DNA of 64,000 nt, from positions 63,488,001-63,552,000 of the forward strand of contig OZ024743.1 of NCBI GenBank assembly GCA_964016885.1. Direction: 5' to 3'. The position numbers and the translations under genes are program-made. Origin of the DNA: Eledone cirrhosa. Taxonomy: Eukaryota. The notes beneath the pieces are model-generated. The model ran no database searches and was not told the origin of the DNA. It saw only the letters and a list, made by a program, of their open reading frames with translations. Position 1 is the first letter of the stretch, and every line of letters starts with the position of its first letter. Below, piece after piece: positions 1,083 through 33,597 of the stretch.

Positions 1083-1114
1083 CCAAAAGTTGTTCGCCGC
1101 TATCATCAGTTGGC
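1083..1114 (-). ncRNA. Degenerate hammerhead-like motif
   Basis: minus strand gccaa-CTGATGA-tagcggc-GAAC-aactt-ttggt; stem I plausible, stems II and III eroded. Confidence 0.25.
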
Positions 1115-1340
1115 TTAACCCTTTGGCATTTAAACCGGTCATATCTATCCAGAATTCTCTTATCTCTCTCTGTTCCAACTGACCATAACCGGCCACTCAT
1201 ACTGACATTAAGGTATTCTTCTCGAAATAAATTATAACATCAAAATCTCATAGATTCCATATTATGTGAGATAATTATGTGGGATAAAGCCTTTACTATG
1301 AAAATACAATAGTAGAGTAATCTAAATGCTAAAAGCTTAA
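1115..1340. mobile_element. piggyBac-type MITE (family 1)
   Basis: TTAA-CCCTTTGGCATTTA ... TAAATGCTAAAAGC-TTAA; homologous copies at 39181 and 48745. Confidence 0.7.
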
Positions 1341-1374
1341 AGACAAAACCCTTTCCTTTTATTACATTTACAAT

Positions 1375-2115
1375 CATCATTACCATTTAATGCCCATTTT
1401 CCACACTAGCATGGGTTAGATGAGTTGTCCTGTTGTGAGACAAGTCAGATAAGGTGACCATGTCTTGCTCATACAGAACTGTTTCTGGATTGGTTTCTAC
1501 AGCTGGATGCCTTTCCTAATACCAACCACATTTACAGCATTGACTGGGTGCTTTTTGTTGTGCACACCCCTTTCTGACATATTGTACAAGGTCACTTTCC
1601 TGTTGGTATCACCTTCCTGTCTTCTTTCCTACTTATTAAGACTTTCATCGTCACTAAATTTACTTTTAGGCCTTTCAACTCCAGGTTCTTCTTCCATGCT
1701 TGAAATGCTGCTTCTAACTCTCCTACAAACTGAGCTATGAGAACTAGGTCATCAGCATAAAGGAACTTTCATGGAGCACCCGTTTTTAAATTTTCAGTGA
1801 AAGCCTGAAGTACAATGATAAATAGGAGTGGACTGATCCTTGGTGGATCCTCACCTGCACTTCAAATTCATCACTATACTCATTGCCAACTCTCACACTG
1901 TGGGTTGCTCCTCTATACATGGCCTGCATGGCCCTCATAAGCCTTTTGTCTACACCTAGCTTCTTAAGTACCCATCAGATTATAGAGCATGGGACCCTAT
2001 CAAAGGTTTCATCCAGATCTACAAATGCTAAATACAGTGGCTTACACTTAGCTAAGTACCTCTCCTGTAGTTGTCTCACCAGAAAAAGGGCATTGGTAGA
2101 ACCCTTATCTGGCAT
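1375..2115 (-). mobile_element. Degraded RTE LINE (3' end plus RT fragment)
   Basis: 3'UTR motifs at 1375-1560; 1735-2115 antisense encodes LVRQLQERYLAKCKPLYLAFVDLDETFDRVP and an LYADD-like segment. Confidence 0.75.
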
Positions 2116-2619
2116 AAATTCAAACTACATCTTATATGGTAAATTAATAGAAACAAACCCTCTCAATTTTAGTGGAAAATCATTTTTTTCCCTCAGCTTC
2201 TTCGTGTGCTAATCTGACCTCCAACATACTCAGAGTTTTCTTTACCATTATTTTATTTTACGGATGTTTTCAACGAATATGACTTCCAAACTAATCGGAA
2301 ATTATTAGCTTTTTAGAAAAAGGAGGGAGAGAGCAAATGGAAAGACCATCAGAGTTTTTCAGATCTGTCACTCTCCTGCATTTGGTGGGAAATAATTATT
2401 TTTCCTCGTTTTTTTTTTTTTTTCTTTTATGTGCTATCAACTAATCTGACGTCTGAACCTTTTTCAAAGCCGTTTTTCTCGGAAAATGGAGGGAGTACAC
2501 CCCTCCCCCCAATCCAATATCACCTTAAACCCATACTCCAATCACATCATTTTCCAGGCAAAAAAGTCAGAAGGGTGGTTTATGCATATATACATGTTTA
2601 TATGCACATTTATATATAT

Positions 2620-2807
2620 CTGTATGTGGTGAACTGCTGAGAGAAAAGCCTACTCAATACCGAAGTAAAGTTTTAATATTCATTTTATTAAGGCTAAATA
2701 GTGAGTCTTGTTACTTTGGAGTTTTGCCTGTTTATCCCAAGGTCATGATAAACAGGCGAAACTCCAGAGTAACAAGACTCACTATTTAGCCTTAATAAAA
2801 TGAATAT
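2620..2807. mobile_element. Penelope-like pLTR remnant with fold-back (61-bp arms 2676-2736/2747-2807)
   Basis: inverted repeat with a 10-nt loop and 2 mismatches; contains the hammerhead 3' half aggc-GAAA-ctc-ca-gag-TA. Confidence 0.5.
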
Positions 2808-3505
2808 CATCATCATCATCATCGTTTAACGTCTATCTTCCATGCTAGCATGGGTTTAGACAGGAATTGTCCCACTTCAGGCAAGATTGGTCGGGTGACC
2901 GTGTCTCGCTCATATAGGACTGTCTGGCAGGTTTTCTACGGCTGGATGCCCTTCCTAACACCAACCACATTTACAGTGTGGACTGGGAGGTCTTTACCGT
3001 GTTTCCTACATGGCCACATTACAGCATGGACTGTGTGTTTTTTTTGTCGTGACACCTACACGGTCTCATTTATTTTGGACTGGATGTTGTGGTACCAACA
3101 TAACTTTACAGAGAAAGGGTGGTGTTGGTGGGAGTGGGAGGGTGGAGTAGGGGTAGTGGGACGGGGTGTATATTTGGTTAAGCGGTACCTACTGACTGTA
3201 GGTTTCGCTTTGTACATAAGCAAGGCGGGTCTTCTGTATTACTGCGTGGCGCCAAAGATCTCGGTCCAGTGACATTGTCTTAGAGAGGTGTAAGTGTGTA
3301 AGGTCTGAATTTATCAAGGGTCTACCTACTCCGTAACTTCCATCAATTTTGATCGCCCTGCACTTTTTTATACAGCTGTCATCTTTCATGCACATCACGT
3401 GTCCATACCAACATAGTCTTCTCTCGAGTAAACAGCATCTGATCCCTCTTATTCCTAATTTCTCACTTAGTTCATTTATGTTTTGCCGTTCACGTATATT
3501 ACTAC
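2808..3505 (-). mobile_element. RTE LINE family A, 5'-truncated
   Basis: (CAT)n tail at 2808, 3'UTR, ORF C-terminus (DDSCIKKCRAIKIDG...DRDLWR) matching the 44615 ORF. Confidence 0.9.
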
Positions 3506-4609
3506 TCGATATATATAAAATTATGTCTCTCTGTCTGTCTGTTTCTATGCATTCTCAAACGTCTGGACCAAATCAAATCAAATTTTACAAGGTAATAGTA
3601 TTAGACCCCATGAATGTCAACATGTAATTTTTATTTTCATTTGGATTAAAAAAATATATTTTATCAAAAATAATATTTTTATAGTGAACTATAGTAAGCC
3701 ACCACTGCCAGTCACATTTTGTATATGAGTGTGTATGTGTCTGTAAGTGTGTTTGCGAGTTTGTTACTACGTAAGTTGCATACACATTATCTTCACACAG
3801 GCAATTAAACACACACACACATCTACACATACAGATACATATGTGATGACAGACAGGTGTGCATGAATGTATGTCTTTGCGTGTCTGTCTTAGTATATGT
3901 ATGTGAGTGTATGTGAGAGTGTGTGTGTGTATGTATGAGTGTATGTGTGTGCGAGTGTATGTGATAATTTTTATTTTCATTTGCATTAGATACATATGTG
4001 ATGACAGACAGGTGTGCCGGTATGTATGTCTGTGTGTGTCTATCTTAGTATATGTATGTGAATGTATGTGAGAGTGTGTGAGAGTGTATGTGTGTATGAG
4101 TGTATGTGTGAGTGTGTGTGTGAGTGTATGTGTGAGTATATGTGAAATAATTTTTATTTTCATTTGCATTAAAACAATAGAAAACAACACACCTTTGTCT
4201 TATTTTGTATATGAATATGTATGTGTGTGTGCATTCATTAGGTAGTGATTAAATACAGACACACATCTACACATATGTAGCAACTGACCAAAAATGAGGT
4301 GAAAAGCTATGCATGTGTCTGTGTGTGTCCATCTTAGTATATGTATATGAGAGTGTATGTGTGTGAGTGTGTAGCAACAATTTATTCATTTGGACACCAA
4401 CAAAAAATTACACAATGAATATTGTTTACCCTGCTTCAAGATTGACAAATTTTCATTTTTAAATTCTATTATCATTACAATGTTGATATCTTTTAAATAA
4501 AATATAGATATTTTGAAATAATTATGTAAAAAATATATCTTCATATTTATTGTTTACTAATCTGAATAAGAACAGCAGTAACCTGGGCAACGCCGGGTAA
4601 TTCAGCTAG
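3506..4609 (+). mobile_element. Non-autonomous Helitron (Lep1-like)
   Basis: 5' TC-gATATATATAAAA with (TCTG)n; 3' hairpin ACCTGGGCAACGCCGGGT then CTAG|T; internal ~160-180-bp duplications and TG-rich repeats. Confidence 0.75.
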
Positions 4610-5214
4610 TATATATATTGAACCGAACTGGTAAATATGGTAATTTCGCATGTGTTGTGTATGCTTTATATATTTCTTTATATATTATTTCTCTGTGTAA
4701 AACACTAACCTTTTGTCTGTGCCTACTATTGCTTCTTAAAAACACTTCCATTCCTCCAAATTTAATAAACTTATTCCATCTATATAAAGAAAAATAACAA
4801 CAACATAATAAATAAATAACCTGCCTACTACCACATATTAGGTAATTTTCCATTCCTGTAATGTCCCACAACACTCTAACTGTACAAGAAAAATAACTAA
4901 TAACATTGAAAATTGTAATGGCATAGGAGTTATAACTCAACAGTTTTACATGGTCACTGTACACTCCATGTACAAAATATGCTTTTTGAGATCTAACTGC
5001 TTGCTCTCTGCTCACTCTTTTGATATTGTATTTATTCTTGAAAACTTTTGAAATTAGTAAACTTTATTCTTTCTTATTTCCTGAGGATATGTGAGTTATA
5101 GATATTATGTATGTTGTAGTTAATTGATAACTTATCATTTCCAGTTGTTCTGCAAATACATTTATTATTATGACCGTATGTAAGTTGTTAACCTTAGTTT
5201 TTTGTAATATTGAA

Positions 5215-5410
5215 TACATACTGTAAATGTGGTTGGTGTTAAGAAAGGCATCCAGTTGTAAAAATCCCGGCCAAATTTACAGTCCTGTTGGAGCAAGGTA
5301 CGGTGTGGCGAATTCTGCCCATACTTGTCTCTCAATGCGGACAACCTATCTGAACCATGCACGCATGGAAAATAGACGTTAAATGGTGATGATGATGATA
5401 ATTATGATGA
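5215..5410 (+). mobile_element. RTE 3' end remnant
   Basis: ctgtaaatgtggttggtgttaagaaaggcatcc...gacgttaaa(tga)n. Confidence 0.75.
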
Positions 5411-5449
5411 TATATATATATACCATACTGGCCAGATAATATTTTTTGA

Positions 5450-5593
5450 TGGAGGCACATGGCTTAGTGGTTAGAGCATTGGCCTTGCAATCAAAAGGTT
5501 GTGAGTTCAATTCTCAGACCGGGTGATGTGTTGTTTCCTTGAGCAAGACACTTTATTTCACATTGCTCCAGTTTACTCAGCTGTAGAAATGAG
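5450..5593 (+). mobile_element. tRNA-derived SINE (family S1)
   Basis: A box TGGCTTAGTGG, B box GAGTTCAATTC, then ccttgagcaagacactttatttcac; homologues at 16445, 29690, 59100. Confidence 0.8.
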
Positions 5594-5604
5594 ATGATAG
5601 GGAC

Positions 5605-5788
5605 TGGGGTCCATATCATTCCACTGCAAAGTGGTCGTAGAGGTGCCATGGCAAAAAAGCACCCAGCACTCACTGTAAATGAGGTTGGTGTTAGGAAGAG
5701 CATCCAGCTGTAGAAATTAAGCCAGAATCAATTCCCGTCTCACCCTTGCAAGCAGGGAAAAAGCGGACGTAAAATGAAATGATGATGA

Positions 5789-5790
<2 letters not shown>
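5605..5790 (+). mobile_element. RTE-type 3' end remnant
   Basis: 48-bp-like subunit plus cttgcaagcagggaaaaagcggacg and (GAT)n tail; similar to 28933-29170. Confidence 0.7.
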
Positions 5791-5824
<34 letters not shown>

Positions 5825-5832
5825 TCATATTG

Positions 5833-6294
5833 TTTTGTAAATCATATTTATTGTATAAATTGTAATAAGTATAAGATGTAATAAAAGTGACTACATTAAA
5901 TTTATTTAATGTTTCCATGGGGATAATTTGATGCTTAAACAATTGATAGAACACATAAATTATGTTATACTATTATTACATAAACCATTGTTTTATAAAC
6001 TGAATAAGTAATATTCGGTTTCATAATAAGTTTCTATTTCATAACTTCTGTATTGCTTCTGTAAGGAAAAGCAATACAGAAGTTATGAAATAGAAACTTA
6101 TTATGAAACCGAATATTACTTATTCAGTTTATAAAACAATGGTTTATGTAATAATAGTATAACATAATTTATGTGTTCTATCAATTGTTTAAGCATCAAA
6201 TTATCCCCATGGAAACATTAAATAAATTTAATGTAGTCACTTTTATTACATCTTATACTTATTACAATTTATACAATAAATATGATTTACAAAA
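5833..6294. repeat. Long inverted duplication, 226-bp arms, 10-nt spacer
   Basis: 5833-6058 is the reverse complement of 6069-6294; mirrored ORFs 5691..5954(-) and 6173..6385(+). Confidence 0.95.
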
Positions 6295-6889
6295 TAAACA
6301 ATACAATACAAAACAAATTAGTCAGAAAAACAACAAAACAGACATGCACACTCATAATAGTGAGGTGGATAAAGCACTGGAATAGACAAACACTCTCACC
6401 AGCATCACCTTAATGCATCAGTAAGATGAGTCAACAACAATGACAAAAACCTTGTTGCCAGTGGTCCATGTCTCCAGTGTCACAGGCTGAAGAAAAAGAT
6501 AAAAGTTTACTGATAAATGAATTAGTTATCTTTCCTTTAAGGGAAGTGGTAAAGTTTAAGTTTGAAAGACCTTTAACAACCTTTTACTTGTTGCTTATGT
6601 TGTTACCTAAATATCACAAACACATTTTGGGGTTGATACGACAGTCACATTTCATTTTCCCATTTTTAGAAAAAAATATATTTTATTCACAGTTGTATAA
6701 ATATCACAAATTGTTCACAATTCTTTATTATGAAAATATAAACACAAATGCAAACACATATAATAAATACAAAAGCACCCAGCCCACACTGTAAAGTGGT
6801 TGTGTATGTATCACGACAAAAATTAGAATACACAGCAAAAATTCTAACCATTCCAAAACTAAAAAGCTGAGCTGAGGACACAAATAAAT

Positions 6890-9869: not shown

Positions 9870-10100
9870 TACTCACCTCCCCCACCAAAGCCCCCAGCCC
9901 ACACTGTAAAGTGGTTGTGTAGGTGTCATGTCAAAAAGTACACAGCCCACACTGTAAAGTGATCATGTAGGTGTCATGACAAAAAGCACCCAGTACACCA
10001 AACCAAAATCAGTTCTGTATGACATCTGACGTGGCTTATCTCATAACGGGACAACTCATTTAACCCATGCTAGCTTGAAAAAATGGACGTTAAACGGTAC
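9870..10100 (+). mobile_element. RTE 3' end remnant with two 48-bp subunits
   Basis: cagcccacactgtaaagtg..gtaggtgtcatg twice, then taacccatgctagc..ggacgttaaa. Confidence 0.75.
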
Positions 10101-10224
10101 AAAACGCCAGCACCAATAGTTTTGCAAGAGATGTCAACATGAATGGACCTGTTATTTTTATCTGAAGACATTTTTTCCAATTCCAACCCGCCCGTCCCCT
10201 CAATCTATCTTATTTCTCATTCTT

Positions 10225-10260
10225 TCTTCTGATGAAAGACTAGCGTCCGAAACGTTAAGA
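10225..10260 (+). ncRNA. Minimal type-I hammerhead ribozyme (Penelope-like)
   Basis: tctt-CTGATGA-aa-gac-tagc-gtc-c-GAAA-cg-TT-aaga; palindromic ACGT stem III; (TA)n ~80 bp downstream. Confidence 0.7.
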
Positions 10261-10332
10261 CCGTCTTCCTGATATATCAAGTGTTAACCTAATATATCCC
10301 TTCCATATACTGTACGGATTGTGTTTACCTTT

Positions 10333-10405
<73 letters not shown>

Positions 10406-11490: not shown

Positions 11491-11532
<42 letters not shown>

Positions 11533-11538
<6 letters not shown>

Positions 11539-11555
11539 ACTCGGAGCATTTTGCT

Positions 11556-11595
<40 letters not shown>

Positions 11596-11618
11596 AGCAA
11601 AATGCTCCGAGTTGTATA
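11533..11618. repeat. Perfect 86-bp palindrome centred on (TA)15
   Basis: caactcggagcattttgctcattg-(TA)15-caatgagcaaaatgctccgagttg. Confidence 0.95.
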
Positions 11619-11654
11619 AAGTACATCAAACAAGAACAACAAAAAGGTACCTGA

Positions 11655-12099: not shown

Positions 12100-12580
12100 C
12101 ACCTCCATAACCCGACACTTGCTCTCCCACAGTGGGATGACTCTCCCCCCAGGCAAGCAACATGTAACCTACTACCCCCTCCTTACCCATTCCCATCACT
12201 ACTTTCCTCAGCCTGGCCAAGAACACAATGAGTGCTCTTCTGTTATAAGGTGATAGTGTTGGTGCCACAATAAAACACACAGATCACTCTGTGAAGTGAT
12301 AGTGCCGGTGCCATGATAAAACACACTCAGATCACTCTGTAAGTTGGTAGTGCTGGTGTCATGACAAAAATAAATCACCCAGTCCACCTTGTGCAATGGA
12401 AGTGCTGGTCCATGATAAAATGATCCCAGTATGTGCTGTAAAGTGGCTGGTGTTAGGAAAGACATCCAGCCATAGAAACCAAGACAAAAACGGAATGCAT
12501 AAGCAAGATATAGCCTCTTGACCAGTCTAGTCTCAAATCATGACAACCTGTCTAACCCATACATGCATGGAAACATCATT
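12100..12580 (+). mobile_element. Old RTE 3'UTR remnant with degenerate ~48-bp subunits
   Basis: repeated ctgtaag..gtagtgctggtg..atgataaaa units ending in ggtgttaggaaagacatccagc. Confidence 0.6.
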
Positions 12581-12960: not shown

Positions 12961-12965
<5 letters not shown>

Positions 12966-13214
12966 GTAGAACACTGGAAGGTAATATCCGTAGTGGTAGA
13001 GCACTCAGTCCATGGTGCGAGTTAGGTAGAAGTGGTTACACAACAGTTAGTTCACCATACCGAGAACAATTGTTTCACCTTAGCGGATCCTCGACTCATA
13101 ATGGACATGGTTATATATATATGTTCCATATAACCATGTCCATTACGAGCTGAGGATCCGCTAAGGTAAAACAATTGTTCTCGGTATAGTGAACTAACTG
13201 TTGTGTAACCACTT
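12961..13214. mobile_element. Penelope-like pLTR remnant with 87-bp fold-back, each arm carrying a hammerhead copy
   Basis: arms 13030-13116/13128-13214; consensus cgag-CTGAGGA-tcc-gctaa-ggt-GAAA-caattg-TT-ctcg; (TA)n on both sides. Confidence 0.7.
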
Positions 13215-13236
13215 ATATATATATATATATATATAT

Positions 13237-15362
13237 GAGACAGAGAGTGACCTGGTGGTTGAACAGCACAGTAGATAAGGCTATTAGAGACAAAAGACTA
13301 GCATGGAAGGCTTGGAAAAAGGGTGGGAGTAGGGAAGAATATACAGCCACTAAGAGAGAAGCTAGACGTCAGGTGTACATAGCACGCAGGGAGGCAGAGA
13401 GTAGGAGGTTTGCCAATGTTCTTCGACGGGAAGATCAGAGGCGTGCGGTGTTCCACATTGCAAGGCAGTGTGTCAATGCAAATCAGGATGTTGTTGGAGA
13501 TAAATGTATCCAGGATGATGCCGGTGTACTTAGTGTCACGAATGACCAGAAAAAGGAGGCCTGGAAATGTCATTATGAGAGACTGATGAATGTGGAGAAC
13601 GAATGGGAGAGAGAGAAATTACCCTTGGTAGATCCGACAGAGGGACCAGCTATTGAGATTGACGAATATAGGGCCCAAGAGGCGATTAGGGAAATGAAAA
13701 ATGGTAAGGCGGCCGGACCATCGGGAATAGTTGCTGAGATGCTGAAGGCATCAGGGGACGTAGGCACTAAACTGGTTGCACGCATCATCAATCAGGCTAT
13801 ATATGGTGGTGTCATACCCAAAGACTGGTGCAACAGTATTCTCATAAATTGCTACAAAGGTAAAGGGGATGCTTTGGAGAGGAGCAATTATAGGGGTATA
13901 AAACTGATAGATCAGGTTATGAAAGTGGCAGAAAGGATATTAGCACAACTAATTAGAGAAAGGGTCAAACTAGATGAGATGCAGTTTGGTTTTGTGCCTG
14001 GGAAGAGTACAACAGATGCCCTCTTCTTGGTGAGACAAATGCAAGAGAGGTTCTTAGAGAAGAATAAGCCACTATACTTAGCCTTTGTTGACCTAGAGAA
14101 GGCCTTTGATAGGGTACCCCGATCTGTCATCTGGTGGTCCCTAAGTAAACTAGGTGTTGAGGAATGGCTTGTGAGGACAGTGCAAACTTTGTACAGAGGT
14201 GCTGTCAGTAAAGTCAGGGTAGGAATGGAGTTTAGTGAGGAATTCCAGATACAAGTAGGAGTACATCAGGGTTCGGCCCTCAGCCCGCTCTTGTTCATTA
14301 TAGTCCTCCAAGCCATAACAGAGGAGTTTAAAACTGGCTGTCCATGGGAACTTCTCTATGCTGACGATCTGGCTCTTATAGCAGAATCAGTAGAGGAGCT
14401 AGAGAATAAATTCCGGCTATGGAAACAGCAGTTGGAAGCAAGAGGACTGAGAGTAAATCTAGCTAAGACAAAAGTGTTGATGAGTAGAAAAGAGGACAAA
14501 ACCCTGATTCCGTCAGGGAAATGGCCATGTTCGATATGCAGAAAAGGAACTGGCATAAATTCTATAAAATGCACACAATGCAGGTCCTGGGTACACAAGA
14601 GATGTAGCGGGATAGCAGGCAAACTAACAGGTAGGGAGAAATATGTATGCAGTAGATATACAGGGAAATCAGACAGTAGAAGTCGCACTGATAGACACAT
14701 TTTTCAAATGTGAGAGGGCGCTATAGAAGTGGTGGATAGCTTCCGGTACCTAGGAGATCAGATTAGCATGGGAGGAGGGTGTTCCGAGGCCATAGTATCT
14801 AGAATAAGGACGGGTTGGAAGAAGTTTAGGGAGCTGCTTCCTCTGTTGATGAAGAAGGGTTTCTCCCTGCGTACGAAAGGCCGGTTATATGATGCCTGTG
14901 TGAGGAGCGCGATGCTGCATGGTAGTGAGACATGGGCAGCAACCGCAGAGGATATGCGACGGCTGGAGAGAAATGAGGCAAGCATGCTCCATTGGATGTG
15001 CAGTGTAAATGTGCGTGAACGACCCAGCATAAATGTGTTGAGAGAGAAACTGTGTCTGAGAGGGATAGAATGTAGTGTACGGGAGAGGAGACTGAGGTGT
15101 TATGGACATGTGATGCGCATGGAGGATGACCGATGGGTGAAGAAGTGCCAGGAAATGCCAGTTGAAGGAAGACGTGGTAGAGGTATACCACGAAAAACAT
15201 GGGCGGAGGTGGTGAGAACAGACCTCAGATCATTGAAGCTCACGGTGGAGATGACGAGGGACCGTGACGAGTGGAGAGATGCTGTGCTGAATAAGACCCG
15301 TCCCACCCTTGCAAGCAGGGAAAAGCGGACGTTTAAATGATGATGATGATGATGCTGATGAT
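13237..15362 (+). mobile_element. RTE LINE family B, 5'-truncated (RT plus PHD-like finger; one frameshift near 14700)
   Basis: ORFs 13235..14713 and 14729..15340 with QFGF, FVDLEKAFD, GVHQGSALSP, LYADD, FRYLG; essentially no 3'UTR; (GAT)n tail. Confidence 0.95.
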
Positions 15363-16444: not shown

Positions 16445-16640
16445 AAGGCATGTGGCTGAGTGGTTAGAGAATTGGATTCACAATCGTGAGGTTGTGAGTT
16501 CGATTCCCAGACCGGGCGATGCGTTATTTCCTTGAGCAAGACACTTTATTTCACGTTGCTCCTTCTACCTGGAGTTGCGACCGATAGATAGTATTAGCAA
16601 TTGGAAAGACCAATGGAAACATTGTTTCCTTGGTCCGATT
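16445..16640 (+). mobile_element. tRNA-derived SINE (family S1)
   Basis: TGGCTGAGTGGTTAGA, GAGTTCGATTCC, ccttgagcaagacactttatttcac. Confidence 0.85.
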
Positions 16641-16794: not shown

Positions 16795-17566
16795 TCATCA
16801 TCATCATCACTGTTTTACGTCCATTCTTCCACACTAGCATGGGTTACACGAGTGGTCCTGTTGTGGGCAATGCCAGGTCAGGTGACCATGTCGTGCTCAT
16901 ACTGAACTGATTTTGGCTAGGTTTCTACAGCTGGATGCTCTTCCTAACACCATCCTCATTTACAGTGAGCACTGGATGCTTTTTACTGTGGCGCCTACAT
17001 TATCACTTTACAGTGTGGACTGGGTGATTTATTGTCATGACACCTACACGACCACTTTACAGTGGGAAGGAGGTGGGGGCATATTGTCTATATGCTTCAG
17101 CTTTGGCTTGTACCCATGGGAAGTCGTGTCTTCTTCTGAATATATATATATATATATCATCATCATCATCATCATCAACGTTTAACGTCCGTGTTCCACG
17201 CTTGCATGGGTTTGGACGGGGGTTTTCCCACTTGAGGCAAGAGTGATTGTCTTGCTCGCATAGGACTGTCTGGCGGGTTTTCTACAGCTGGATGCCCTTC
17301 CTAACACCAACCACATTTACAGTGTGGGGCTGGGAGGTTTTTACCGTGTTGCCTACACGGCCACATTACAGCGTGGACTGTCTGGCAGGTTTTCTACAGC
17401 TGGATGCCCTTCCTAACACCAACCACATTTACAGTGTGGGGCTGGGAGGTTTTTACCGTGTTGCCTACACGGCCACATTACAACGTGGACTGTCTGGCAG
17501 GTTTTCTACAGCTGGATGCCCTTCCTAACACCAACCACATTTACAGTGTGGGGCTGGGAGGTTTTA
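16795..17566 (-). mobile_element. Two RTE 3' end fragments; the second has a 112-bp 3'UTR segment repeated ~3 times
   Basis: (CAT)n tails at 16795 and 17158; tggatgcccttcctaacacc at 112-bp spacing. Confidence 0.85.
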
Positions 17567-20306: not shown

Positions 20307-21440
20307 TACATTTTACTATATGTATATTCAATTTGACAAGAAGAAAAGGTGGAAGGAAAACATTACTTTTTACAAATGTTATAAGTATCCACACTTTGTT
20401 CATAAGTTCCTTTATTAATTTGATACCAAACCACCTGAAACTACCCCTGATTCTATAATAAAAAAAAATATATATATATAAACTGTTTAAAAGAGTTCAT
20501 ATTTATATTTAAACCTCCCATTATAATTTTATGTTAGAACCTTTTGTTCATAATGAGAAGGTTAGTTACATTACTAAACCCTCCCAAATTTTCAATTATT
20601 TTAAAAATTAATCAAAACACTTAGGCAGTCTGTTATATTCAAAATATAGTAATGAAAGGTTTAAAAATATTTAAATAATCTGAGCTTCCCTTCATCTATG
20701 CCAACCCATTTCGGCCAAATGCCCCCTTTTACCCCTCAAAATCACGAAACGCCCCCCCCCCCCTCCTATTTTTCCATTTTTCAATATACTACTGATTTTG
20801 ATATCAGTAGATTACTGGGCCAAATCAAGTAATGTTAGAATCTTTAAAAATATCTTTAAAAAATACTCGTACAAATTAAATACAAACAAGTTTCAGTCCA
20901 AAACAAAAGCAAGCTATTTCAAATTATATATTTTTGAAAAATAGATCTGAATGTTCTCAAAGATTTGATCTCAGTCGAAAAAGTTTTTTTTTTTAATTCT
21001 CTATTTCACTGTTAGCTGTTGTAATATTTTGAGTGGACAGACAATTCTACAATTCAAACTGTAAAGTCAAAATACAAAAGATGCAAAATATGAAGAATTT
21101 CTTACCTTTCTCTTGAATCACAAACTCAAGGGAAAAATAGTACCTTGCAAAATAAAGTGCCTTGATCACAAACTTAGTTGCAACGAATGAATTGAGATGC
21201 TTAGTGACAGTGAGCAAACAATATCTGTATCCATTATATATATATATATATACATAGGTAGATACACACACACACATATATGCGCATGCGCACACACACA
21301 CAAACAAACTTGTGTGTGTCTGTGTGTGCCTTGTTTTTGGTACAGAAAGAATTTTGTCTCCAGTTTTTATTGCCGGGTCAAAGGCTACTGCTCTTTTCAA
21401 CAACATCAAGTAACAACGCCATATATATATATATATATAT

Positions 21441-22007
21441 GAATGTATATATATATAGTGTATTTTGCAATACACTGTATGCTTAATTAAAATCATTTCG
21501 AAGACCTTACGCTATTGTTTTAGAGTAGTGAGAGTCTCACTTACTTTAATTTTCAGCAAACAGGGGAGATAAAGCTGACAGAGCTCTGTTTCGCACTTTT
21601 TGGTGCTTATCAAAGCTAAGTACTCCGCCTGTTTGCTGAAAATCATGAATGTTTGATTCTTATAGAATTCTATTAATAATCAGGAACTGATTATACAGAG
21701 CGGTTGCCGGTCAAGCAGAAATTGAAAATTAGAATTGGTGCTCTGAAATAGCGATATATATATATATGAATGTATATATAGTGTATTTTGCAGGCGGAGT
21801 ACTTAGCTTTGATAAGCACCAAAAAGTGCGATCACAGAGCTCTGTCAGCTTTATCTCCCCTGTTTGCTGAAAATTAAAGTAAGTGAGACTGTCACTACTC
21901 TAAAACAATAGCGTAAGGTCTTCGAAATGTTTTTAATTAAGCATACAGTGTATTGCAAAATACACTATATATACATTCATATATATATCGCTATTTCAGA
22001 GTACCAA

Positions 22008-22013
<6 letters not shown>
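21441..22013. mobile_element. Hammerhead-bearing ~321-327-bp retrozyme/Penelope-like unit: about 1.1 tandem monomers (minus sense) plus inverted partial copy
   Basis: direct recurrence at 21441/21768; 21791-22013 inverted; (TA)n both sides; homologue at 33128. Confidence 0.85.
21549..21643 (-). ncRNA. Type-I hammerhead ribozyme, U3-A8 core variant
   Basis: agct-TTGATAA-gcac-caaaaa-gtgc-GAAA-cagagctctg-TC-agct (21573-21617) enclosed by a 16-bp distal stem I. Confidence 0.8.
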
Positions 22014-22091
<78 letters not shown>

Positions 22092-23499: not shown

Positions 23500-23855
23500 T
23501 GCCATGATAAAATGCTCTAAGTCCATTCAATATGTGGTAATGCTGGTGCCAAGATAAAATTCATCTAGTGCACTTTGTAAAGTGGCAGCACTTGTGCCAT
23601 AACAAAATCCACCCAGTACACTCTCTAAAGTGGTAATACTGGTTTCACGACAAAGGCACTCAATACATTCTGTAAAGGGATAGTGCTTGGACAAGGAAAT
23701 GAACCAAGTACACTCTGTAAAGTGGTAGTGCTGATGCCATGGTAAAATACATCCAGTACTCTGTAAAGTGGTAGTATTGGAGTCACAATAAAATGCAGCT
23801 GGTATAATTTATAAAGTTGTAGTGCTGATGCCATGGTAAAATACACCCAGTACAT
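23500..23855 (+). repeat. Degenerate ~46-48-bp tandem array of RTE 3'UTR origin
   Basis: recurring cagtacactctgtaaagtggtagtgctg. Confidence 0.65.
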
Positions 23856-25349: not shown

Positions 25350-25459
25350 TATACATATATATATATAATTATGTATATATATAATTATATATATAATATA
25401 TATACATACATAATTATATATATATATATATATGTAATTATGTATGTGTATATATATAT

Positions 25460-25501
<42 letters not shown>

Positions 25502-25797
25502 GGAAAAAATGAAACAAAATTTCATTTCCCACTCTTAGTACGGCTGTTACTTAAATCTAAGTATGTACATATACATACATATATGTATACAGACGCACAG
25601 TAGTATGTATATATATATATACATACATGCACACATATATATATGTACGTATGGATTCACTGAACATTTATTATAATGTTCGGTGTGTTTGTAAACAAAC
25701 ATCCCGTATTAAGCCGCAGTGTCTAGCAACCACCGCTGCTCGTTTGTTCAACACTGACAAAGGAACGCTGTACTAGTTTCAATATATATATATATAT

Positions 25798-28700
25798 CAT
25801 CATCATCATCATCATCAACGTTTAACGTCCGTGTTCCACGCTTGCATGGGTTTGGACGGTAGTAGTCCCACTTGAGGCAAGAGTGATTGTCTTGCTCGCA
25901 TAGGACTGTCTGGCAGGTTTTCTACAGTTGGATGCCCTTCCTAACACCAACCACATTTACAGTGTGGGTCTGGGAGGTTTTTACCGTGTTGCCTACACGG
26001 CCACATTACAGCGTGGACTGTGTGTTTTTTTGTCGTGACACCTACACGATCTCATTTGTTTCGGCCTGGATGGCGCGGCACCAACATAACTTTACATAGA
26101 ACGGGGTGGTGTGGATGGGGTGGGGGTGGTGGGGGTGGGACGGGGTGTATTTTGTTAGAGATGCCTACTGGCTGTAGTAGGTTTTACTATGTATTTAGGT
26201 AAGGCGGGTCTTCTCTGTTACTGAGTACCGCCAAAGGTCTCGGTCCAGTGACATTGTCTTGGAGAGGTGTAAGTGTGTGAGGTCGGAGTTTATCAGCTCG
26301 TCCCAGGTTTTTCTAGGTCTGCCTATTCCGTGGCTACCGTCTATCTTTATTGCCCTGCACTTTGTTATACAGCTATCGACTTTCATGCGCATCACGTGTC
26401 CATACCAGCGTAGCCTTCTCTCGAGTAAACAACATCTGATCCCTCTTATTTCTAATTTTTTCCTTAGTTCGTTTATGCTTTGCCGTTCACGTATATTACT
26501 GTTACACATCCAGCGGAGCATGCAAGCTTCGTTCCTCTCTAGTCTGCGTATATCCTCTGCACACAATGCCCAGGTCTCACTGCCATGCAACATTGCTGTT
26601 CGTATGCAGGCATCGTACAACCTGCCTTTCATTTTTAGGGAGAACCCTTTAGCAGCTAATAGTGGTATAAGCTCTCTGAACTTTTTCCAACCAGTTCTGA
26701 CACTAGCTACTGTACTTTCAGAGCACCCTCCCCCACTGCTGATTTTATCGCCCAGGTAATGGAAGCTGTCCACTATTTCTATAGAACCCTCTGCGCAATT
26801 GAAAGAGCTAGTATTTTGTGGGCACTTGCTGCTACTTATTGCACCAGAGCACCGGCCACATGTAAAATCTATGTTCTTAGTTAGCTTACCTGTGATTCCA
26901 CTATATCTTTTATGCACCCATACTTTGCATTTAGGACATAAAATGGAGTTTCTACCTACGCCTTTCCTACACACTGAGCATGACCATTTCCCAGAAGGGA
27001 CCGCCACCTTATTTTCTTTCCTACAAACTAGAACTTTAGTCTTAGCCAGGTTAATTTTAAGTCCTTTTGATTCTAGGCCGTGCTTCCATGTTTGGAATTT
27101 CTTCTCTAGCTCGGCCATTGATTCAGCTATGAGTGTCAGATCGTCTGCATATAGGAGTTCCCATGGGCAGCCGGTCTTGAACTCCTCTGTTATAGCCTGA
27201 AGGGCAATAATAAATAGTAGGGGGCTGAGAACAGAGCCTTGATGGACGCCAACTTTTACGCTAAACTCTTCACTATATTCGTTGTTAATTCTAACCTTGC
27301 TGACTGTTTCTTTATACATGGCTTGTATAGCTCTCACAAGCCATTCGTCAACACCTAGTTTTCTAAGAGCCCACCAGATAATGGAGCGGGGGACTCTGTC
27401 GAAGGCTTTCTCCAAGTCGACAAAAGCTAAGTAAAGGGGTTTACCTTTAGCTAGGTACTTCTCCTGTAGTTGTCGTACAATGAAAAGAGCGTCTGTGGTA
27501 CTTTTGCCTGACACAAACCCGAACTGCATTTCATCTAGGTCAATTCTCTCTCTGATTAGTTGCGCTATTACTTTTTCCGTGACCTTCATGACCTGGTCGA
27601 TTAATTTAATGCCTCTATAGTTACTCCTATCTAGGGCGTCTCCTTTACCCTTATAACAGTTAACTATGATGCTCCTATGCTAGTCCTTCGGAACAACCCC
27701 ATTCTGTACAACTTGGTTAACTATGCGGGTGACCATGGTGTGTCCCACCGTGCCAGATGCCTTCAGCATCTCAGCAACTATTTCCGAAGGCCCAGCCGCC
27801 TTACCCATCTTCATATCCTTGATTGCCTTACTTATTATACTCCCCTCGACTAACACTGCTGGTCCCTCTATTGGGTCGATATGGGGGAGACTGTCTTTCT
27901 CCCATTTATTCTCCTCATTTAGTAGCCTTTCATAGTGACACTTCCAAGCTACCTTCTTATCAGCGTCGGTGATGGCAAGTACGCCGTCATCATTAAGTAC
28001 ACACTTCTCCCCGACAATATCACGGTTTTCCTTGACGCATTGCCTAGCAATCCTGAACACCTCACGTTTTTGGTCCTCGCGTTGTAGAACATGCTTGAAC
28101 TTTCTTTCCTCTGCTTCCCTTCTTGCTAAGTACACTTGTCTCCTAGCTTCCCTCCTGGCCACTTGATAGTCTTCTCTACTTCCCCCATCCCGCCATACTT
28201 TCCAAGCCTGCTTTTTGGCCTTAATTGACCCCTCCACCTTACTGTTCCACCACCATGTTACTCTCCTCCTGCCTACAGGCCTGCTCCAGCCACAGACTTC
28301 GTCTGTCGCCATCAGCAGGTTTGCTTTCAGAAATTCCCACTGTCCCTCTATATTGTCCGACTCTAAATGCTCTTCCTTACTGTCGAAAGCATCAAGTAAT
28401 ATGCTTTTAAATTTATTTCTGGCTGTGGGGTCCTTTAGCTTCCATATTTTTCTCCTGAGGATAGTCCTCTTCTGCTGTCGAGTACGTCTCGTCCTGACTA
28501 TGAGGTCGCTAATTATCAGTCTATGTTGGGAGGTGCATTCTTCATGGGGGAGGGATTTAGTGTTTACAACAGACACTCTGTCACGTCTTCTGGTAAGGAT
28601 ATAATCTACCTGGATTGTGTGTTCCCCGGATCTATAGGTGATCAGGTGATTGTCACGTTTTTTGAAGTTAGTGTTACAGATAGTTAGGTTATTTGCGTCA

Positions 28701-28885
28701 CAGAATTCCAGGATTCTGGAGCCTTCCTCATTTCTAGTACCAAACCCATAGCCTCCATGGATTTCGTCGTAGCCGTCACAATGTTGTCCAACGTGACCAT
28801 TTAGGTCGCCTGCAATAATTATATAGTCACTGTCGGTTATTTGGGAGGTAGTGAGCATCAGTGTCTCATAGAATCTGTCTTTTGT
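25798..28885 (-). mobile_element. RTE LINE family A, long 5'-truncated copy
   Basis: ORFs 27680..28957 and 26195..27589 nearly identical to the 44615 protein; in-frame TAG at 27680; full 3'UTR and tail. Confidence 0.97.
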
Positions 28886-28894
28886 ACTTTTCAA

Positions 28895-28936
<42 letters not shown>

Positions 28937-29689
28937 GTCCCTATCATTCCACTGCAAAGTGGTCGTGGAGGTGCCACGTAAAAAAAAAAAGCACCTGTAA
29001 ATGAGGTTGGTGTTAGGAAGGGCCTCCAGCTGTAGAAATCAAGCCAGAATCAGTTCCCGTATGAGCAAGACAAGGTCAGCCGACCGGACACTGCCCACAA
29101 CAGGACAACCCATCTAACCTATGCTAGCATGGAAGAACGGACGTAAAATGGTGATGATGATGATAATGATATACACACATATATAATATATATATATATA
29201 TACACATGTATACACATTAATGAAACCCTCTCTCTCTCTCTCCATATATATATATATGTATATGTGTGTATATATATATATACACACACATAATTACATA
29301 TATATATATGTAATTATGTATGTGTATATATATAGTATGTATTAAATATATATATATATATATATATGGAGAGAGAGAAGGAGAGAGAGAGAGGTGAGGG
29401 TTTCATTAATCCTTCAGTATGATATACCAGACAACCATAGGACTATGGTGGTGGTGGTGGTAGGGAAGTGAGGCTATGAGTAACCTTTACTTTGCCCCTG
29501 GCCTAATTCCATTTGGCAAGGAAGCAATCAACTGAAGATTAGTGAGTTGATCAGCATTCCACCTGTAATTAATCTGTCTCCATTGGGTGGGTGGCGTTCA
29601 TGTTGTCTCAAGATTTAGGAATAAAAATGTATGAAGCCTCTTCTACAGACACTATGAGGTAGTTTTCTATTTTTGGACAACTACACTGT

Positions 29690-30030
29690 GAAGGCACATT
29701 CCCTCGTGATTATGCTGTTGGACACATAATCATAATGTTGTGGTTTTGATTCCTGGACTAGGTGGTGTGTTGTGTTCTTCAGCAAAATACTTTACTTCAC
29801 ATTGCTCCTTCTGTCAGGAGTTGTGACCAGCAGAAATGGAAAGATCAATTGAAACATTGTTTCCTTGGTCCGCTCTGATGATTGCCTCCTTTCATTCAAG
29901 TCAAACAATTGTGCTGAAGTTACTGCTCCATTAAAAAAAGCTGATCCTCAGCTTGAACTAAGAAAACAATGTTTCCATTGGTCTTTCCCTTAACTGATAT
30001 TATCTGCCAGTCACAACTCCTGGCAGAAGG
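29690..30030. mobile_element. SINE S1 copy plus inverted partial copy
   Basis: similar to 16445-16640; 29960-30030 is an inverted match to 29808-29870. Confidence 0.6.
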
Positions 30031-30234
30031 ACTCATTCAACCTATGCTAGCATGAAAAAGCAGATGTAAAATGGATGATGTTGATGATGGTGTACAGGGA
30101 ACATTTGATAAAATATGTTATTGTTTTTTTTGTAAATATATATAAATATATATTTAAAGCAAGACCATGTGATAAATATATTTATAATATATATTGATAC
30201 CAGGAAATGAATCATTTATTATTTGATAGCTACA

Positions 30235-30246
30235 AGAGAGAGAGAG

Positions 30247-30327
<81 letters not shown>

Positions 30328-30348
30328 AGAGGGAGAGAGAGAGAGAGA
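30235..30348. repeat. (GA)n microsatellite
   Basis: direct reading. Confidence 0.95.
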
Positions 30349-30944
30349 CACCATAGGATAAGGTCATTTGTTATTGTGTATCTATAGAGATAAAATACTT
30401 TTAAAAAAAATTTGTTTATCATTCATGTAATAAAGTAACATTTCTGATAGGGTTCAAACTGAAAGCTGGGATATATCAGACATCCAATATGATTGATATG
30501 ACATGAGTGACTCAGGCGTATTGTATAAAAATATTTTTTTACCCTGTCAGAAATTATTTAACTCTTAACCTTCTGTACTGCATGAAACATTAACAAGATA
30601 TTCTTGAAAAGTAAAAAATAACACTTTGACTGCATCACATTAAAAATCCAAGTTTCATTCTAATATTGCATATTTTCACAACAATCAGTCTACTAGTAAA
30701 GATACTATAAACATTTGAATTAACAAATATGATTTTAGATATTTTCATTTTCTGTTAAATCACTTCATGTGTATTGTCTCGTAACTCCTGATACAGTCGT
30801 AGGTATGCCATATTGACATAAGGCATTTCTTGGACATTTTAAGCCTGGCGGAGTCCATCCCTCTCCAGACCTTAGTACAGCAGATTTCTTCCAGAGAAAG
30901 ATAGAAAATGAGGGAAAGGAAATGAGAAAGAGATGTAGAGGAAG

Positions 30945-31095
30945 AATCGACCGCAGTACTAGACTGGTACATTTTTTATCAACCTTGAAAGGATGAAAGG
31001 CAAAGCTGACCTCGGCAGGATTTGAACTCAGAGAGCAGAGAGCCAGAACCAATACCATAGAACATTCTATCCGATGTTCTAACAACTCTGCCTAT
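30945..31095 (-). mobile_element. tRNA-derived SINE (family S2)
   Basis: antisense gagttcaaatcc..ctttgcctttcatccttt..gataaaaaatgtaccag. Confidence 0.8.
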
Positions 31096-31348
31096 GTTAA
31101 ATCATTACAGAATGTTAAAAGTTAACCTTTCATGATACCTCTAATGAAATACACTCTATTTCAATTATTTAACAAATTATTTTGAGGTATTTACTAAAAT
31201 TACTAATTATTTCATTTCTAAGATAGTAATTTTGAAAATCATAGGTAATAACTATCATTAAACATATGGCAATGAAAAGGTTAATATATCAGATAGTACA
31301 TTGATATTTGTCCTCACACAAACAAGCTGACACTAGAATGGTCGTTGT

Positions 31349-31398
31349 CATCATCATCATCATCATCATCATCGTCGTCATCATCATCATCATCATCG

Positions 31399-31459
<61 letters not shown>

Positions 31460-31505
31460 TGTTTTAACATCCACTTTCCTGGCTAGCAAGGGTTGGACAA
31501 GTCTA
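31349..31505 (-). mobile_element. RTE terminal remnant with expanded (CAT)n tail
   Basis: ~110-bp (CAT)n followed by tttaacatccac..gctagcaagggttgg. Confidence 0.75.
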
Positions 31506-31919
31506 CATAGACCAAGTCAGTACTGATGTGGGGTTACTGATCTCCAAGACAGGCTAATGAACTGCATCTCACTTAAATATGGCCTCACATTCTACCAAGT
31601 GCACAGAGGAGGTTGCCATGTCTTTAATTCAACTGAAGGGTTCTCCCAACCCTTTGTTTGATATATATACATATAAATATTGTAGCAAGTCTTCTCGTGG
31701 GTAAACTGAGGTATGAAGAATCTTTCTTGAATTTATGAATGAAGCTTCTTTCATACCTCAATATACTCTTGAGAAGGGTTGCTACTTATAAGCCAGAACC
31801 ACTAGGCGTTGCCTTCTTTTATAAACATTTTGTACCTTCCCATGCATAGAGTACTACCCTGATTTGTAGTCTACCTAATTTGTGGTCTCCCTGGTTTTGG
31901 CACTGCAGACTTATATATA

Positions 31920-32457
31920 TCATATATACTTGAGAAATAGTTGATCTCATGTAAAAGTCAACACCTTATTTTTGTCCAAAAAAATCTGTAATTTTCCATA
32001 GACCTCATATAAAGGTCAATCCTGGTATTTCACAGATAACAGGTCAACATTTGTGGGTAGAAATAACTCTGTTACAAAATCATCATAAATTTAAGGCAAA
32101 TTTATATTGCAAATACATGTCTGAAACTAAAAATTTACCCAGACATGTGCCAAAAGTTTGATGAATATGAGTAAAAGAGCAAGTGTAAATATTTATAAAA
32201 GCTATGCGGCCTTCTTTATGGATTTTGTTTTTTACTAGGACGTGCGTTTTGATACATAGAATCGGTAATATTACTGTAATTCATTGTTTTTGTTTTTATT
32301 GATTTAGAGATCAGTTGAGCTTCTATTGATACAGTACTTTGGATTCTAGCTTGAATTTCATGCCCTTCAAAAGTAGTATCTATGTAATAGTCATCCCTAT
32401 AAATTAAATCTTTAAAAAATGGTCTAAAAAATTCGATTTTTACACGAGTATATACCG
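31920..32457. mobile_element. Tc1/mariner-pogo-type MITE
   Basis: catatatacttgag ... cacgagtatataccg-TA. Confidence 0.55.
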
Positions 32458-32933
32458 TAGGTATTTATATATATCATCATCATCATCACCATTTAATGTC
32501 ATGGGTTAGACAAGTTGTCCTGTTGTGAGAAATGCCAGGTCAGGTGACCATGTCTTGCTCATACAGACCTGATTTTGGCTTGGTTTCTACAACTGGATGT
32601 TCTTCCTAATGCCACCCTCATTTACAGTGAGTACTGGGTGTTTTTTGTTGTGACACCTGCATGACCACTTTACAGTGTGAGGTGGACGCTTTTTGTTGTG
32701 TCACCATCACAACCACTTTACAGTGAGGGCTGGGGGCTTCACTGGATGTATACTCCAGCCTGTCCTCATGGGAGATTGTATGGGAGTGGGTGGGGTGTGA
32801 TGGTGCATACTATATGTATGCTTTAGCTTCAGTCAGTGCAGTAGCATAATGCCAGAGATCTCGGTCCTGTGTTATTACCTTACATATATACATAAATATA
32901 TATATATATTTAATATAGAAATAGCATATACAG

Positions 32934-32975
32934 GACTAGACATGTTTCATTTGAAGGAAATCATCAATTCTAGTC
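32934..32975 (-). ncRNA. Degenerate minimal hammerhead
   Basis: gactagaa-TTGATGA-tttccttcaaat-GAAA-catg-TC-tagtc; palindromic stem III; (TA)n downstream. Confidence 0.4.
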
Positions 32976-33127
32976 CCGTTGAAGCCAGTTCTATACTAAA
33001 TATTATATATACTCTACTATGTATTGAGTACCTTACTTACCGTGGTTACCCCCGATTGAACTTTGGATACATACACACACATATATATATATATATAATA
33101 TATATATATATATAATATATATATATA

Positions 33128-33597
33128 TTAGAATTGGTGCTCTGAAATAGCGATATATATATGAATGTATATATAGTGTATTTTGCAATACACTGTATGC
33201 TTAATTAAAAGAATTTCGAAGACCTTACGCTATTGTTTTAGAGTAGTGACAGTCTCACTTGCTTTAAATTTTCAGCAAACAGGGGGAGATAAAGCTGACA
33301 GAGCTCTGTTTCGTACTATTTGGTACTTATCAAAGCTAAGTATTCCACCTGTTTGCTGAAAATCATGAATGTTTGATTCTTATAGAATTTTAGTAATAAT
33401 CAGGAACTGGTTATACAGAGCGGTTGCCGGTCAAGCAGAAATTGAAAATTAGAATTGGTGCTCTGAAATAGCGATATATATATAAATTTAAAGTAAGTGA
33501 GACTGTCACTACTCTAAAACAATAGCGTAAGGTCTTCAAAATGCTTTTAATTAAGCATACAGTTTATTGCAAAATACACTATATATACATTCATATA
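33128..33597. mobile_element. Second copy of the hammerhead-bearing 321-bp unit (tandem overlap plus inverted partial copy)
   Basis: ttagaattggtgctctgaaatagcg at 33128 and 33449; 33488-33597 inverted; (TA)n flanks. Confidence 0.85.
33293..33337 (-). ncRNA. Type-I hammerhead ribozyme, U3-A8 core variant
   Basis: agct-TTGATAA-gtac-caaata-gtac-GAAA-cagagctctg-TC-agct. Confidence 0.8.

Follow-up and report, generated by a model that had tools for sequence, protein, structure and literature searches.

We analysed a window of 64,000 nucleotides of repeat-rich animal DNA (contig OZ024743.1, positions 63,488,001 to 63,552,000 of the forward strand), along which short loci combining a hammerhead ribozyme motif, a (TA)n run and a fold-back recur. 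These loci are probably 3′-end remnants of Penelope-like elements (PLEs) that target (TA)n, accompanied by one non-autonomous family lacking an open reading frame (ORF). An initial annotation of the window had already attributed the recurring grammar to Penelope, and this reading was supported and could be sharpened to the (TA)n-targeting Hydra type through a match to a published table (PMC8557442). The grammar itself is the known 3′ end of (TA)n-targeting PLEs and hence already published biology. What the initial annotation had missed is that two of the loci carry an ORF-less, circularly permuted unit with a one-sided tail. Loci are labelled by their start: A 1010, B 2620, C 10225, D 12961, E 21441, F 31682, G 32880 and H 33128.

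Hammerhead motifs exceed the shuffled background

A strict type-I descriptor, in which U3-A8 was taken as a permitted core variant after reading of a published U3-A8 example (the variant concerns E and H), revealed three intact cores in the window, at 10225-10260(+), 21573-21617(-) and 33293-33337(-). Two sets of 150 block shuffles gave means of 0.08 and 0.06, with no shuffle in either set reaching three matches or even two. When one core mismatch was tolerated but helix III had to be palindromic and helix I had to score at least 4, there were five matches versus 0.16 expected (0/300 shuffles), the additions to the strict set being 13150-13179(+) in D and 32939-32967(-) in G; this descriptor was tuned after the loci were known (with a 3-nt offset permitted for 32939), so that its p-value is optimistic. 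A third descriptor, modelled on the published Hydra-clade table, produced three full matches (13150, 21577 and 33297) versus 0.09 expected (0/300 shuffles). Within the window, motif counts exceeded background with each of the three descriptors (0/300 shuffles each).

Looser descriptors were noisy, returning 69 matches at two mismatches and a background mean of 6.1 for the stem-free class. The box-only pattern CUGANGA..GAAAC matched once in the window versus 0.58 expected, so the boxes alone are no evidence of a hammerhead. The Rfam family HH9 scored 26.5 bits at E (E 1.8e-4 on 481 nt) and 20.8 bits at H (33274-33351), both below its gathering cut-off of 52, and the Rfam scan gave no hammerhead match at 10100-10335 (C), 13120-13215 (D) or 31682/32880 (F and G). 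Neither the one-mismatch nor the Hydra-shaped descriptor matched at 31682-31915 (F) or 1010-1114 (A), and MAFFT alignment of hammerheads from different families was unsuccessful.

In total, hammerheads hold at five of the seven main loci (C, D, E, G and H), representing four families; they are intact at 10225, 21573 and 33293, and damaged at 13146 and 32939. The initial annotation over-counted hammerheads: a motif at every listed locus was not supported, B having a non-significant 3′ half and F none, while the weak motif it reported at 1010-1114 is degenerate and was not recovered by the descriptors.

A 321-nt unit without an ORF at two loci

The claim that the loci belong to unrelated sequence families was borne out: among 91 pairs of 14 segments, only E and H align clearly, with 284 identities and 12 mismatches over 296 aligned positions. 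Their parts are as follows.

33153-33473, minus strand: locus H, full ORF-less unit (retrozyme-like) of 321 nt, GC 34%
33293-33337, minus strand: locus H, hammerhead, intact type-I with U3-A8 core, at the tip of a 16-20-bp rod
33127-33152, minus strand: locus H, 26-nt tail at the terminus, leading into (TA)n at 33081-33128 and equal to the unit start at 33448-33473
33484-33600, plus strand: locus H, inverted 5′-truncated arm, without hammerhead or tail, ending in (TA)n/(CA)n
21436-21790, minus strand: locus E, long arm with 37 nt of the previous unit followed by a full unit, its tail-less end in (TA)n at 21421-21457
21573-21617, minus strand: locus E, hammerhead, intact type-I, same family as 33293
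21791-22014, plus strand: locus E, inverted 5′-truncated arm with a damaged hammerhead at 21805-21850 (GAA box broken)

At both loci, a long arm and an inverted 5′-truncated arm are joined head to head, with their 3′ ends pointing outward into (TA)n (in H, the inverted arm is identical to the long arm at 93/97 positions). The long arms measure about 355 and 357 nt versus 318-321 nt for the unit, and thus comprise about 1.1 units. Such a partial tandem, resembling a PLE pseudo-long terminal repeat (pLTR), was seen in E and H and not in A-D, F or G. Because the long arms exceed one unit and cross an intact cleavage site, their template appears to have been a circle or an uncleaved tandem rather than a cleaved linear monomer.

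A 26-nt segment occurs four times in E and H and recurs with a period of 321 nt. Two copies are termini in (TA)n that share the same last nucleotide (33127-33152, and 21989-22014, with which the inverted arm of E ends as it runs into (AT)14), and the other two (21728-21753 and 33448-33473) continue into the unit. The tail is present at one end of each insertion, namely on the short arm in E and on the long arm in H, and the 3′ ends lie 141-144 and 167-170 nt beyond the hammerhead cleavage site.

The longest sense stop-to-stop frame in the circularised unit is 41 aa, and the 321-nt unit folds at z = -5.0. With a non-coding unit within 150-450 nt, low GC and a canonical type-I hammerhead, E/H has some of the features by which retrozymes are recognised. 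The putative ribozyme itself, as read from the sequence, carries the core boxes and three helices in type-I order, and helices I-III are fully paired in 3/3 copies. Li et al. 2026 (bioRxiv 10.64898/2026.07.22.740005) use as a criterion for retrozymes a tandem array in which two or more complete units carry hammerheads; none was present within the window, and for this reason we term E/H retrozyme-like only. With one intact hammerhead per strand, the E/H copies in the window are probably dead ends.

Fold-backs are of two kinds

The remaining loci are the following.

1020-1116, minus strand: locus A, first box and 4-bp helix I by eye (1083-1113), without helix II or III; degenerate and a doubtful member
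2620-2807, no strand assigned: locus B, symmetric inverted arms 2676-2736 and 2747-2807, 59/61 identical
10225-10260, plus strand: locus C, minimal PLE-type hammerhead with intact boxes and a 4-nt palindromic helix III
12963-13109, minus strand: locus D, left arm, with a damaged hammerhead at 13061-13098 and a one-sided 68-nt extension (12963-13030) into (TA)16
13134-13213, plus strand: locus D, right arm, with a one-mismatch hammerhead at 13146-13183, no extension, ending in (TA)n
31682-31911, plus strand: locus F, imperfect hairpin (31682-31785) with a TA run on either side and no detected hammerhead; a doubtful member
32905-33003, minus strand: locus G, RNA rod whose tip carries a hammerhead that is damaged or atypical, with (TA)n on both sides

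A local inverted-repeat search revealed fold-backs at 2678-2805, 13031-13213, 21458-21965, 33176-33579, 32910-32999 and 31682-31785, and none at C (10225) or A (1010); it returned 27 rows, most of them without a hammerhead. The fold-back that the initial annotation had treated as one uniform part is therefore present at B, D, E, F, G and H, and lumps together two kinds of structure. In B, D, E and H, as opposed to C and A, it is an inverted, 5′-truncated second DNA copy, with arms about 93-98% identical and a putative tail on one side in 4/4 cases (26 nt in E and H, 68 nt in D, 56 nt in B). In G and F, it is an RNA-like rod stem; these two, like the stem within E/H, are rods of imperfect self-complementarity (63-74% in the inverted-repeat search), and the folds of G and F are 7-11 kcal/mol better on one strand, as with RNA stems.

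More specifically, the left side of B carries a 56-nt extension reaching (TA)n, and its plus strand holds the 3′ half of a Hydra-type hammerhead (GAA and 4-bp helix III, 2758-2771), although this half-motif class is not significant (three seen versus 1.37 expected, 52/300 shuffles). In C, an extra nucleotide precedes a weak helix II, and (TA)n follows 87 nt downstream; the frames upstream (10088-10162), read by eye, showed no clear GIY-YIG end. The arms of D share 74 identities with 5 mismatches, and its right-arm hammerhead has Hydra-type U flanks and a 4-bp helix III. The 68-nt extension of D contains a 14-nt imperfect direct repeat 30 nt apart, every possible end of it carries a short AC-rich motif, and it may consist of a 38-nt tail plus a template jump. 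The core of G (32939-32967) has a helix I offset by 3 nt and a weak helix II, and the locus folds at z = -8.0 (minus strand -38.0 versus plus strand -26.8 kcal/mol). The hairpin of F folds at -48.2 kcal/mol on the plus strand, with 4 GU pairs, and at -40.7 on the minus strand, and is possibly a decayed rod like that at 32905-33003. Locus A folds at z = -0.24.

Two further candidate relationships were rejected: the homology between 1020-1070 and 33011-33070 (7/5000 shuffles) was equalled or bettered by two unrelated real loci, and an 8-mer common to the end regions of B and G has 3 occurrences versus 2.5 expected.

Separately, a near-perfect AT-rich palindrome of 468 bp without a hammerhead lies beside (AT)16 at 5830-6297 (228/229 identical, 10-nt spacer); it may have arisen by recent fold-back duplication or be an artefact of assembly. 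At 11505-11620, an exact 24-bp inverted duplicate of the flank surrounds a central (TA)15, its outer end in (TA)n, again without a hammerhead.

(TA)n neighbours and density of the loci

A (TA) run of at least 4 units was found 29-121 nt downstream of all seven hammerhead copies (7/7), versus a background of 0.19 per position. From this background, the chance of such an association in four independent families is arithmetically about 0.001. The (TA)n target of Hydra, Neptune and Naiad PLEs thus accompanies the hammerhead copies; in the E/H family, the (TA) run belongs to the unit. The initial annotation had placed (TA)n on one side at 50-130 bp, but 6/7 copies also have (TA)n within 132 nt upstream, and two of the downstream spacings, 29 and 34 nt, fall below its lower bound of 50 bp.

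The first 34 kb contain five supported loci (1 per 6.8 kb, somewhat sparser than the one per 5 kb originally estimated for the first half), and 34-64 kb none. Of the 98 (TA)n runs in the window with four or more units, 81 fall within the first 34 kb and 17 in 34-64 kb, and the absence of supported hammerheads from the second half is in line with the scarcer target there. The remnants total 1,899 bp, or 3% of the window. A curated annotation of Octopus vulgaris assigns 6.83% of the genome to PLEs, in 190 families (PMC13282606), so that the PLE load here would be ordinary if the host is an octopus; on this comparison, the suggestion of a probably under-annotated population was not supported.

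Comparison with Hydra-clade PLEs and a proposed mode of insertion

Craig et al. 2021 (PMC8557442) describe PLE insertions as 5′-truncated partial tandems that carry a 30-40-bp tail at one end and are often accompanied by an inverted copy next to them; these authors also report a Hydra clade, which has hammerheads, targets (TA)n and includes Hydra-1_Obim of Octopus bimaculoides. In the supplement to that paper, (TA)n preference is listed for 26/27 Hydra families, a helix III of 3-4 bp with AC..GU for 26/26 hammerhead rows, a helix II flanked on each side by an additional U for 14 rows, and an attached 5′-truncated inverted copy for one family. By our own arithmetic, the distance between hammerhead and 3′ end is about 25-150 nt in 23/24 of these rows, a count that leaves out two rows (an inverted copy and a 5′-placed motif). 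The window loci resemble these elements in having a hammerhead near the 3′ end, (TA)n, an inverted 5′-truncated copy and a putative one-sided tail. Moreover, the helix III of E/H (ACAG/CUGU) occurs in 4 Hydra rows, that of B (ACUC/GAGU) in 5 and that of D (ACAA/UUGU) in 1, and the U-flanked helix II of D and G resembles the 14 rows just mentioned. The U3-A8 core and the 12-nt palindromic helix III of E/H, by contrast, are absent from the 26 Hydra rows of that supplement.

In PLE hammerheads of Schistosoma, the U3-A8 core variant has been reported, and Cervera and de la Peña 2014 (PMC4209133) describe opposite-strand hammerhead pairs 100-700 bp apart. In E/H, the variant sits in a canonical-type motif rather than a minimal one. 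Locus C is like the minimal PLE hammerheads of that study in its extra nucleotide before helix II and its minimal palindromic helix III, although its helix II is short and mismatched compared with the 7-8 bp of Schistosoma. On the strength of these motif shapes, D, G and B would most likely derive from the Hydra clade and C from a minimal-hammerhead type. E/H is most likely non-autonomous and was probably mobilised by a PLE that targets (TA)n.

As to how such insertions may have arisen, Frangieh et al. 2024 (PMC11167929) showed that the protein of an anole PLE (PAc) cuts and extends both strands of AT-rich DNA in vitro, that its reverse transcription starts at two adjacent internal sites delimiting the tail, and that insertion in vitro is unaffected by hammerhead mutants, so that cleavage is not needed. 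Applied to the window, a PLE protein with reverse transcriptase (RT) and GIY-YIG domains, made elsewhere in the genome, would cut a (TA)n tract on both strands, and each break end would then prime reverse transcription of the element RNA from one of two internal starts lying close together. The choice of start would leave one end with a tail and the other without, as happens in vitro for the anole PLE. In E and H, two 5′-truncated cDNAs would be joined head to head, giving unequal arms, while in B and D one cDNA may have folded back on itself, giving symmetric arms. For E/H, the template would be a circle or an uncleaved tandem of the 321-nt non-coding unit. This proposal is supported by the E and H tails, which end at the same nucleotide in two independent insertions and on opposite arm types.

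Predicted folding of the E/H hammerhead

The E/H hammerhead combines a 4-bp helix II with a 6-nt loop, as in Rfam HH9, with a 12-nt palindromic helix III whose duplex is predicted at -20.1 kcal/mol. In the monomer, an inactive pairing is predicted to beat the active fold by 2.9-3.5 kcal/mol. With two copies of the tip, the predicted free minimum is a double hammerhead in both E and H; for the full tandem, prediction puts this double hammerhead 5-10 kcal/mol ahead of a pair of active monomers and makes it the minimum-energy fold in H. Folding prediction would thus have the hammerhead off as a monomer and on, or nearly on, as a dimer. In tandem RNA, the palindromic helices III may pair between copies and favour the active hammerhead, whereas a built-in alternative pairing would silence it in the monomer. 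Taken together with known retrozyme biology, these predictions suggest that tandem RNA could be cut to monomers that circularise and persist.

Points against the Penelope reading and alternative explanations

Several observations weigh against reading the loci as PLE remnants with a PLE-driven E/H family. [quoted passage not shown] The Hydra-1_Obim hammerhead motif has 0 matches in the window, and 0/6 window 12-mers occur in the supplement of Craig et al. 2021, a low-sensitivity comparison (PMC8557442). Besides the missing RT/GIY-YIG ORF, the loci thus differ from Hydra-clade PLEs in the lack of a match to the published octopus element. The clade call uses short motif shapes, with no protein to place. 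The Rfam scores are below cut-off, and by gathering score the E/H hammerhead is not assignable to HH9. Tail lengths of 26, 56 and 68 nt fall outside the usual 30-40, and the arm asymmetry of B may be secondary, since its right end abuts the (CAT)n tail of another repeat. The E/H family has two copies only, all other loci being singletons within the window. Between E and H there is one compensatory change in helix II (C-G to U-A), a single event that is not significant (157/500 shuffles). In the full E tandem, the double hammerhead is predicted at 1.1 kcal/mol above the inactive fold. Finally, there are hammerhead-free fold-backs adjoining (TA)n at 5830-6297 and 11537-11614.

The alternative that survives best, while still rather doubtful in our view, is that E/H is an internally deleted PLE, its tail fused to the 3′ end, that was moved in trans as an uncleaved partial tandem with the hammerhead as a passenger. 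This would fit the lack, within the window, of any array with two or more complete units, the indifference of PAc insertion in vitro to hammerhead mutants (PMC11167929) and the existence of non-autonomous PLEs with pLTRs in Chlamydomonas (MRC1); moreover, circle and uncleaved tandem are indistinguishable from sequence. On the other hand, canonical motifs with a 4-bp helix II have been assigned to retrozymes and not to autonomous PLEs (PMC7229834), and the E/H motif, with its 4-bp helix II and 6-nt loop (HH9), is of this retrozyme-assigned kind. The unit also lies within the retrozyme range for length and GC (321 nt, 34%; PMC7229834), and its helices I-III are fully paired in 3/3 copies.

Snap-back repair and template switching are established mechanisms of fold-back formation. 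The fold-backs might accordingly be DNA-level accidents at (TA)n, arising by either mechanism or by assembly fold-back, in which hammerheads were sometimes caught; as a general explanation, we consider this unlikely. It is favoured by the near-perfect hammerhead-free palindromes at (TA)n (5830-6297 and 11537-11614), the symmetric arms of D and B, and the TA at the centre of D. In E and H, however, the arms are unequal and end at the family's two fixed 3′ ends, and the short arm of E (hammerhead to tail, contiguous) is not present as such in its long arm. Because the arm sequences differ by 2-6%, the arms are also not fresh assembly artefacts. An accident is therefore plausible for 5830 and 11537, perhaps for B and D, and unlikely for E and H.

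It is highly improbable that the short elements were moved by the abundant RTE-like LINEs of the window instead of by PLEs. LINE ORFs with APE and RT domains dominate the coding content, one of them uninterrupted over 1,028 aa, and LINEs have been named as possible retrozyme drivers (PMC7229834). The window LINE and its short interspersed nuclear elements (SINEs) nevertheless end in (GAT)n/(CAT)n, such ends being lacking in the hammerhead elements, and a one-sided tail with an inverted copy sharing the same 3′ end has been described for PLEs and is stated to be absent in target-primed reverse transcription of elements without long terminal repeats (LTRs).

That the motifs are chance matches in AT-rich, hairpin-rich DNA would fit A, F and the half motif in B as far as testable, as well as the many background matches of loosened descriptors, but is scarcely credible beyond these, given counts that no shuffle reached with any of the three descriptors, and is already refuted for E and H.

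Other features of the window

The remaining annotated features are listed below.

13193-15340, 26195-29038, 39276-42675, 44540-47626 and 49629-50543: LINE ORFs with APE and RT (some with PHD) domains, by domain scan
50778-57867: 48-bp satellite, 147 copies, 91% matches
9887-9993, 12250-12369 and 23534-23854: short arrays of 46-48 bp related to this satellite

The frame at 44540-47626 is an uninterrupted 1,028-aa LINE frame with APE, RT and PHD domains, its best database relative being 52-53% identical, and this LINE has several younger and older relatives elsewhere in the window. A 112-bp tandem duplication at 17263-17565 and 47795-48026 lies within a 3′ region common to the LINE and its short derivatives. 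Protein searches with window frames returned metazoan relatives (aquatic invertebrates, fish and arthropods) at about 35-83% identity. We take the SINEs to be octopus-like and the LINEs to be of RTE type.

Two neighbouring frames of 187 and 127 aa on the minus strand at 34745-35692 have no Pfam match; the 187-aa frame has 1,245 uncharacterised animal relatives (maximum 88% identity), as for a transposon protein. The tRNA-like match at 5460-5517 (28.5 bits, Rfam cut-off 29) was not called by ARAGORN, which found 0 tRNAs over the window, and is probably a SINE head. A hairpin element of about 225 bp at 29806-30031 resembles a miniature inverted-repeat transposable element, with a related partial copy, by eye, at about 16560-16640. 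All Rfam microRNA matches in the window were under cut-off, reflect hairpins and TA runs, and were dismissed.

Comparison with retrozymes

Non-autonomous PLEs are already known (PMC8969392). Among them, MRC1 and other non-autonomous Chlamys PLEs form ORF-less insertions with PLE architecture, as does E/H, but they are green algal, and most Chlamys elements lack hammerheads (PMC8557442). Metazoan non-LTR retrozymes have a non-coding unit of 170-400 nt, a GC below 45% and a canonical type-I hammerhead (PMC7229834; Li et al. 2026). Their connection to PLEs has so far consisted of co-occurrence and pLTR phylogeny (PMC7229834; Li et al. 2026): PLEs were named "a strong candidate" for spreading animal retrozymes (PMC7229834), and according to Li et al. 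2026 the mobilisation mechanism remains to be elucidated. The main text of the latter preprint, in the part available, contains no "tail" and a lone "inverted" within a reference. We found no paper on tail or inversion footprints of a retrozyme, or on a cephalopod retrozyme, in a search outside of which lay most subscription journals and Repbase/Dfam.

We tentatively propose that E/H could be a retrozyme forming circular RNA, with copies that bear the footprints of a (TA)n-targeting Hydra-clade PLE and with a mixed-type switch hammerhead. By footprints we mean two fixed RT starts 26 nt apart, a one-sided tail and a head-to-head inverted copy; by mixed-type switch, the joining of helix III and U3-A8 of PLE type to loop contacts of retrozyme type, with a monomer-off, dimer-on behaviour encoded in the sequence. 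If true, this would provide insertion-level evidence that PLE enzymes mobilise animal retrozymes, and, with 3 intact cores in 64 kb, it would hint at a very high hammerhead density in the genome. Such footprints, borne by a hammerhead unit that lacks an ORF, offer a direct test of whether PLE enzymes spread small ribozyme RNAs.

E/H resembles metazoan retrozymes in size, GC, motif, strong self-pairing and more-than-unit copies (PMC7229834). It differs from them in consisting of about 1.1 units with an inverted arm in (TA)n, as opposed to the tandem arrays of metazoan retrozymes (Li et al. 2026). Moreover, its monomer hammerhead is predicted to be blocked, whereas for most circles of metazoan retrozymes the prediction is free folding into an active hammerhead (PMC7229834), and the predicted monomer-off switch may in this way bear on how retrozyme circles avoid self-cutting.

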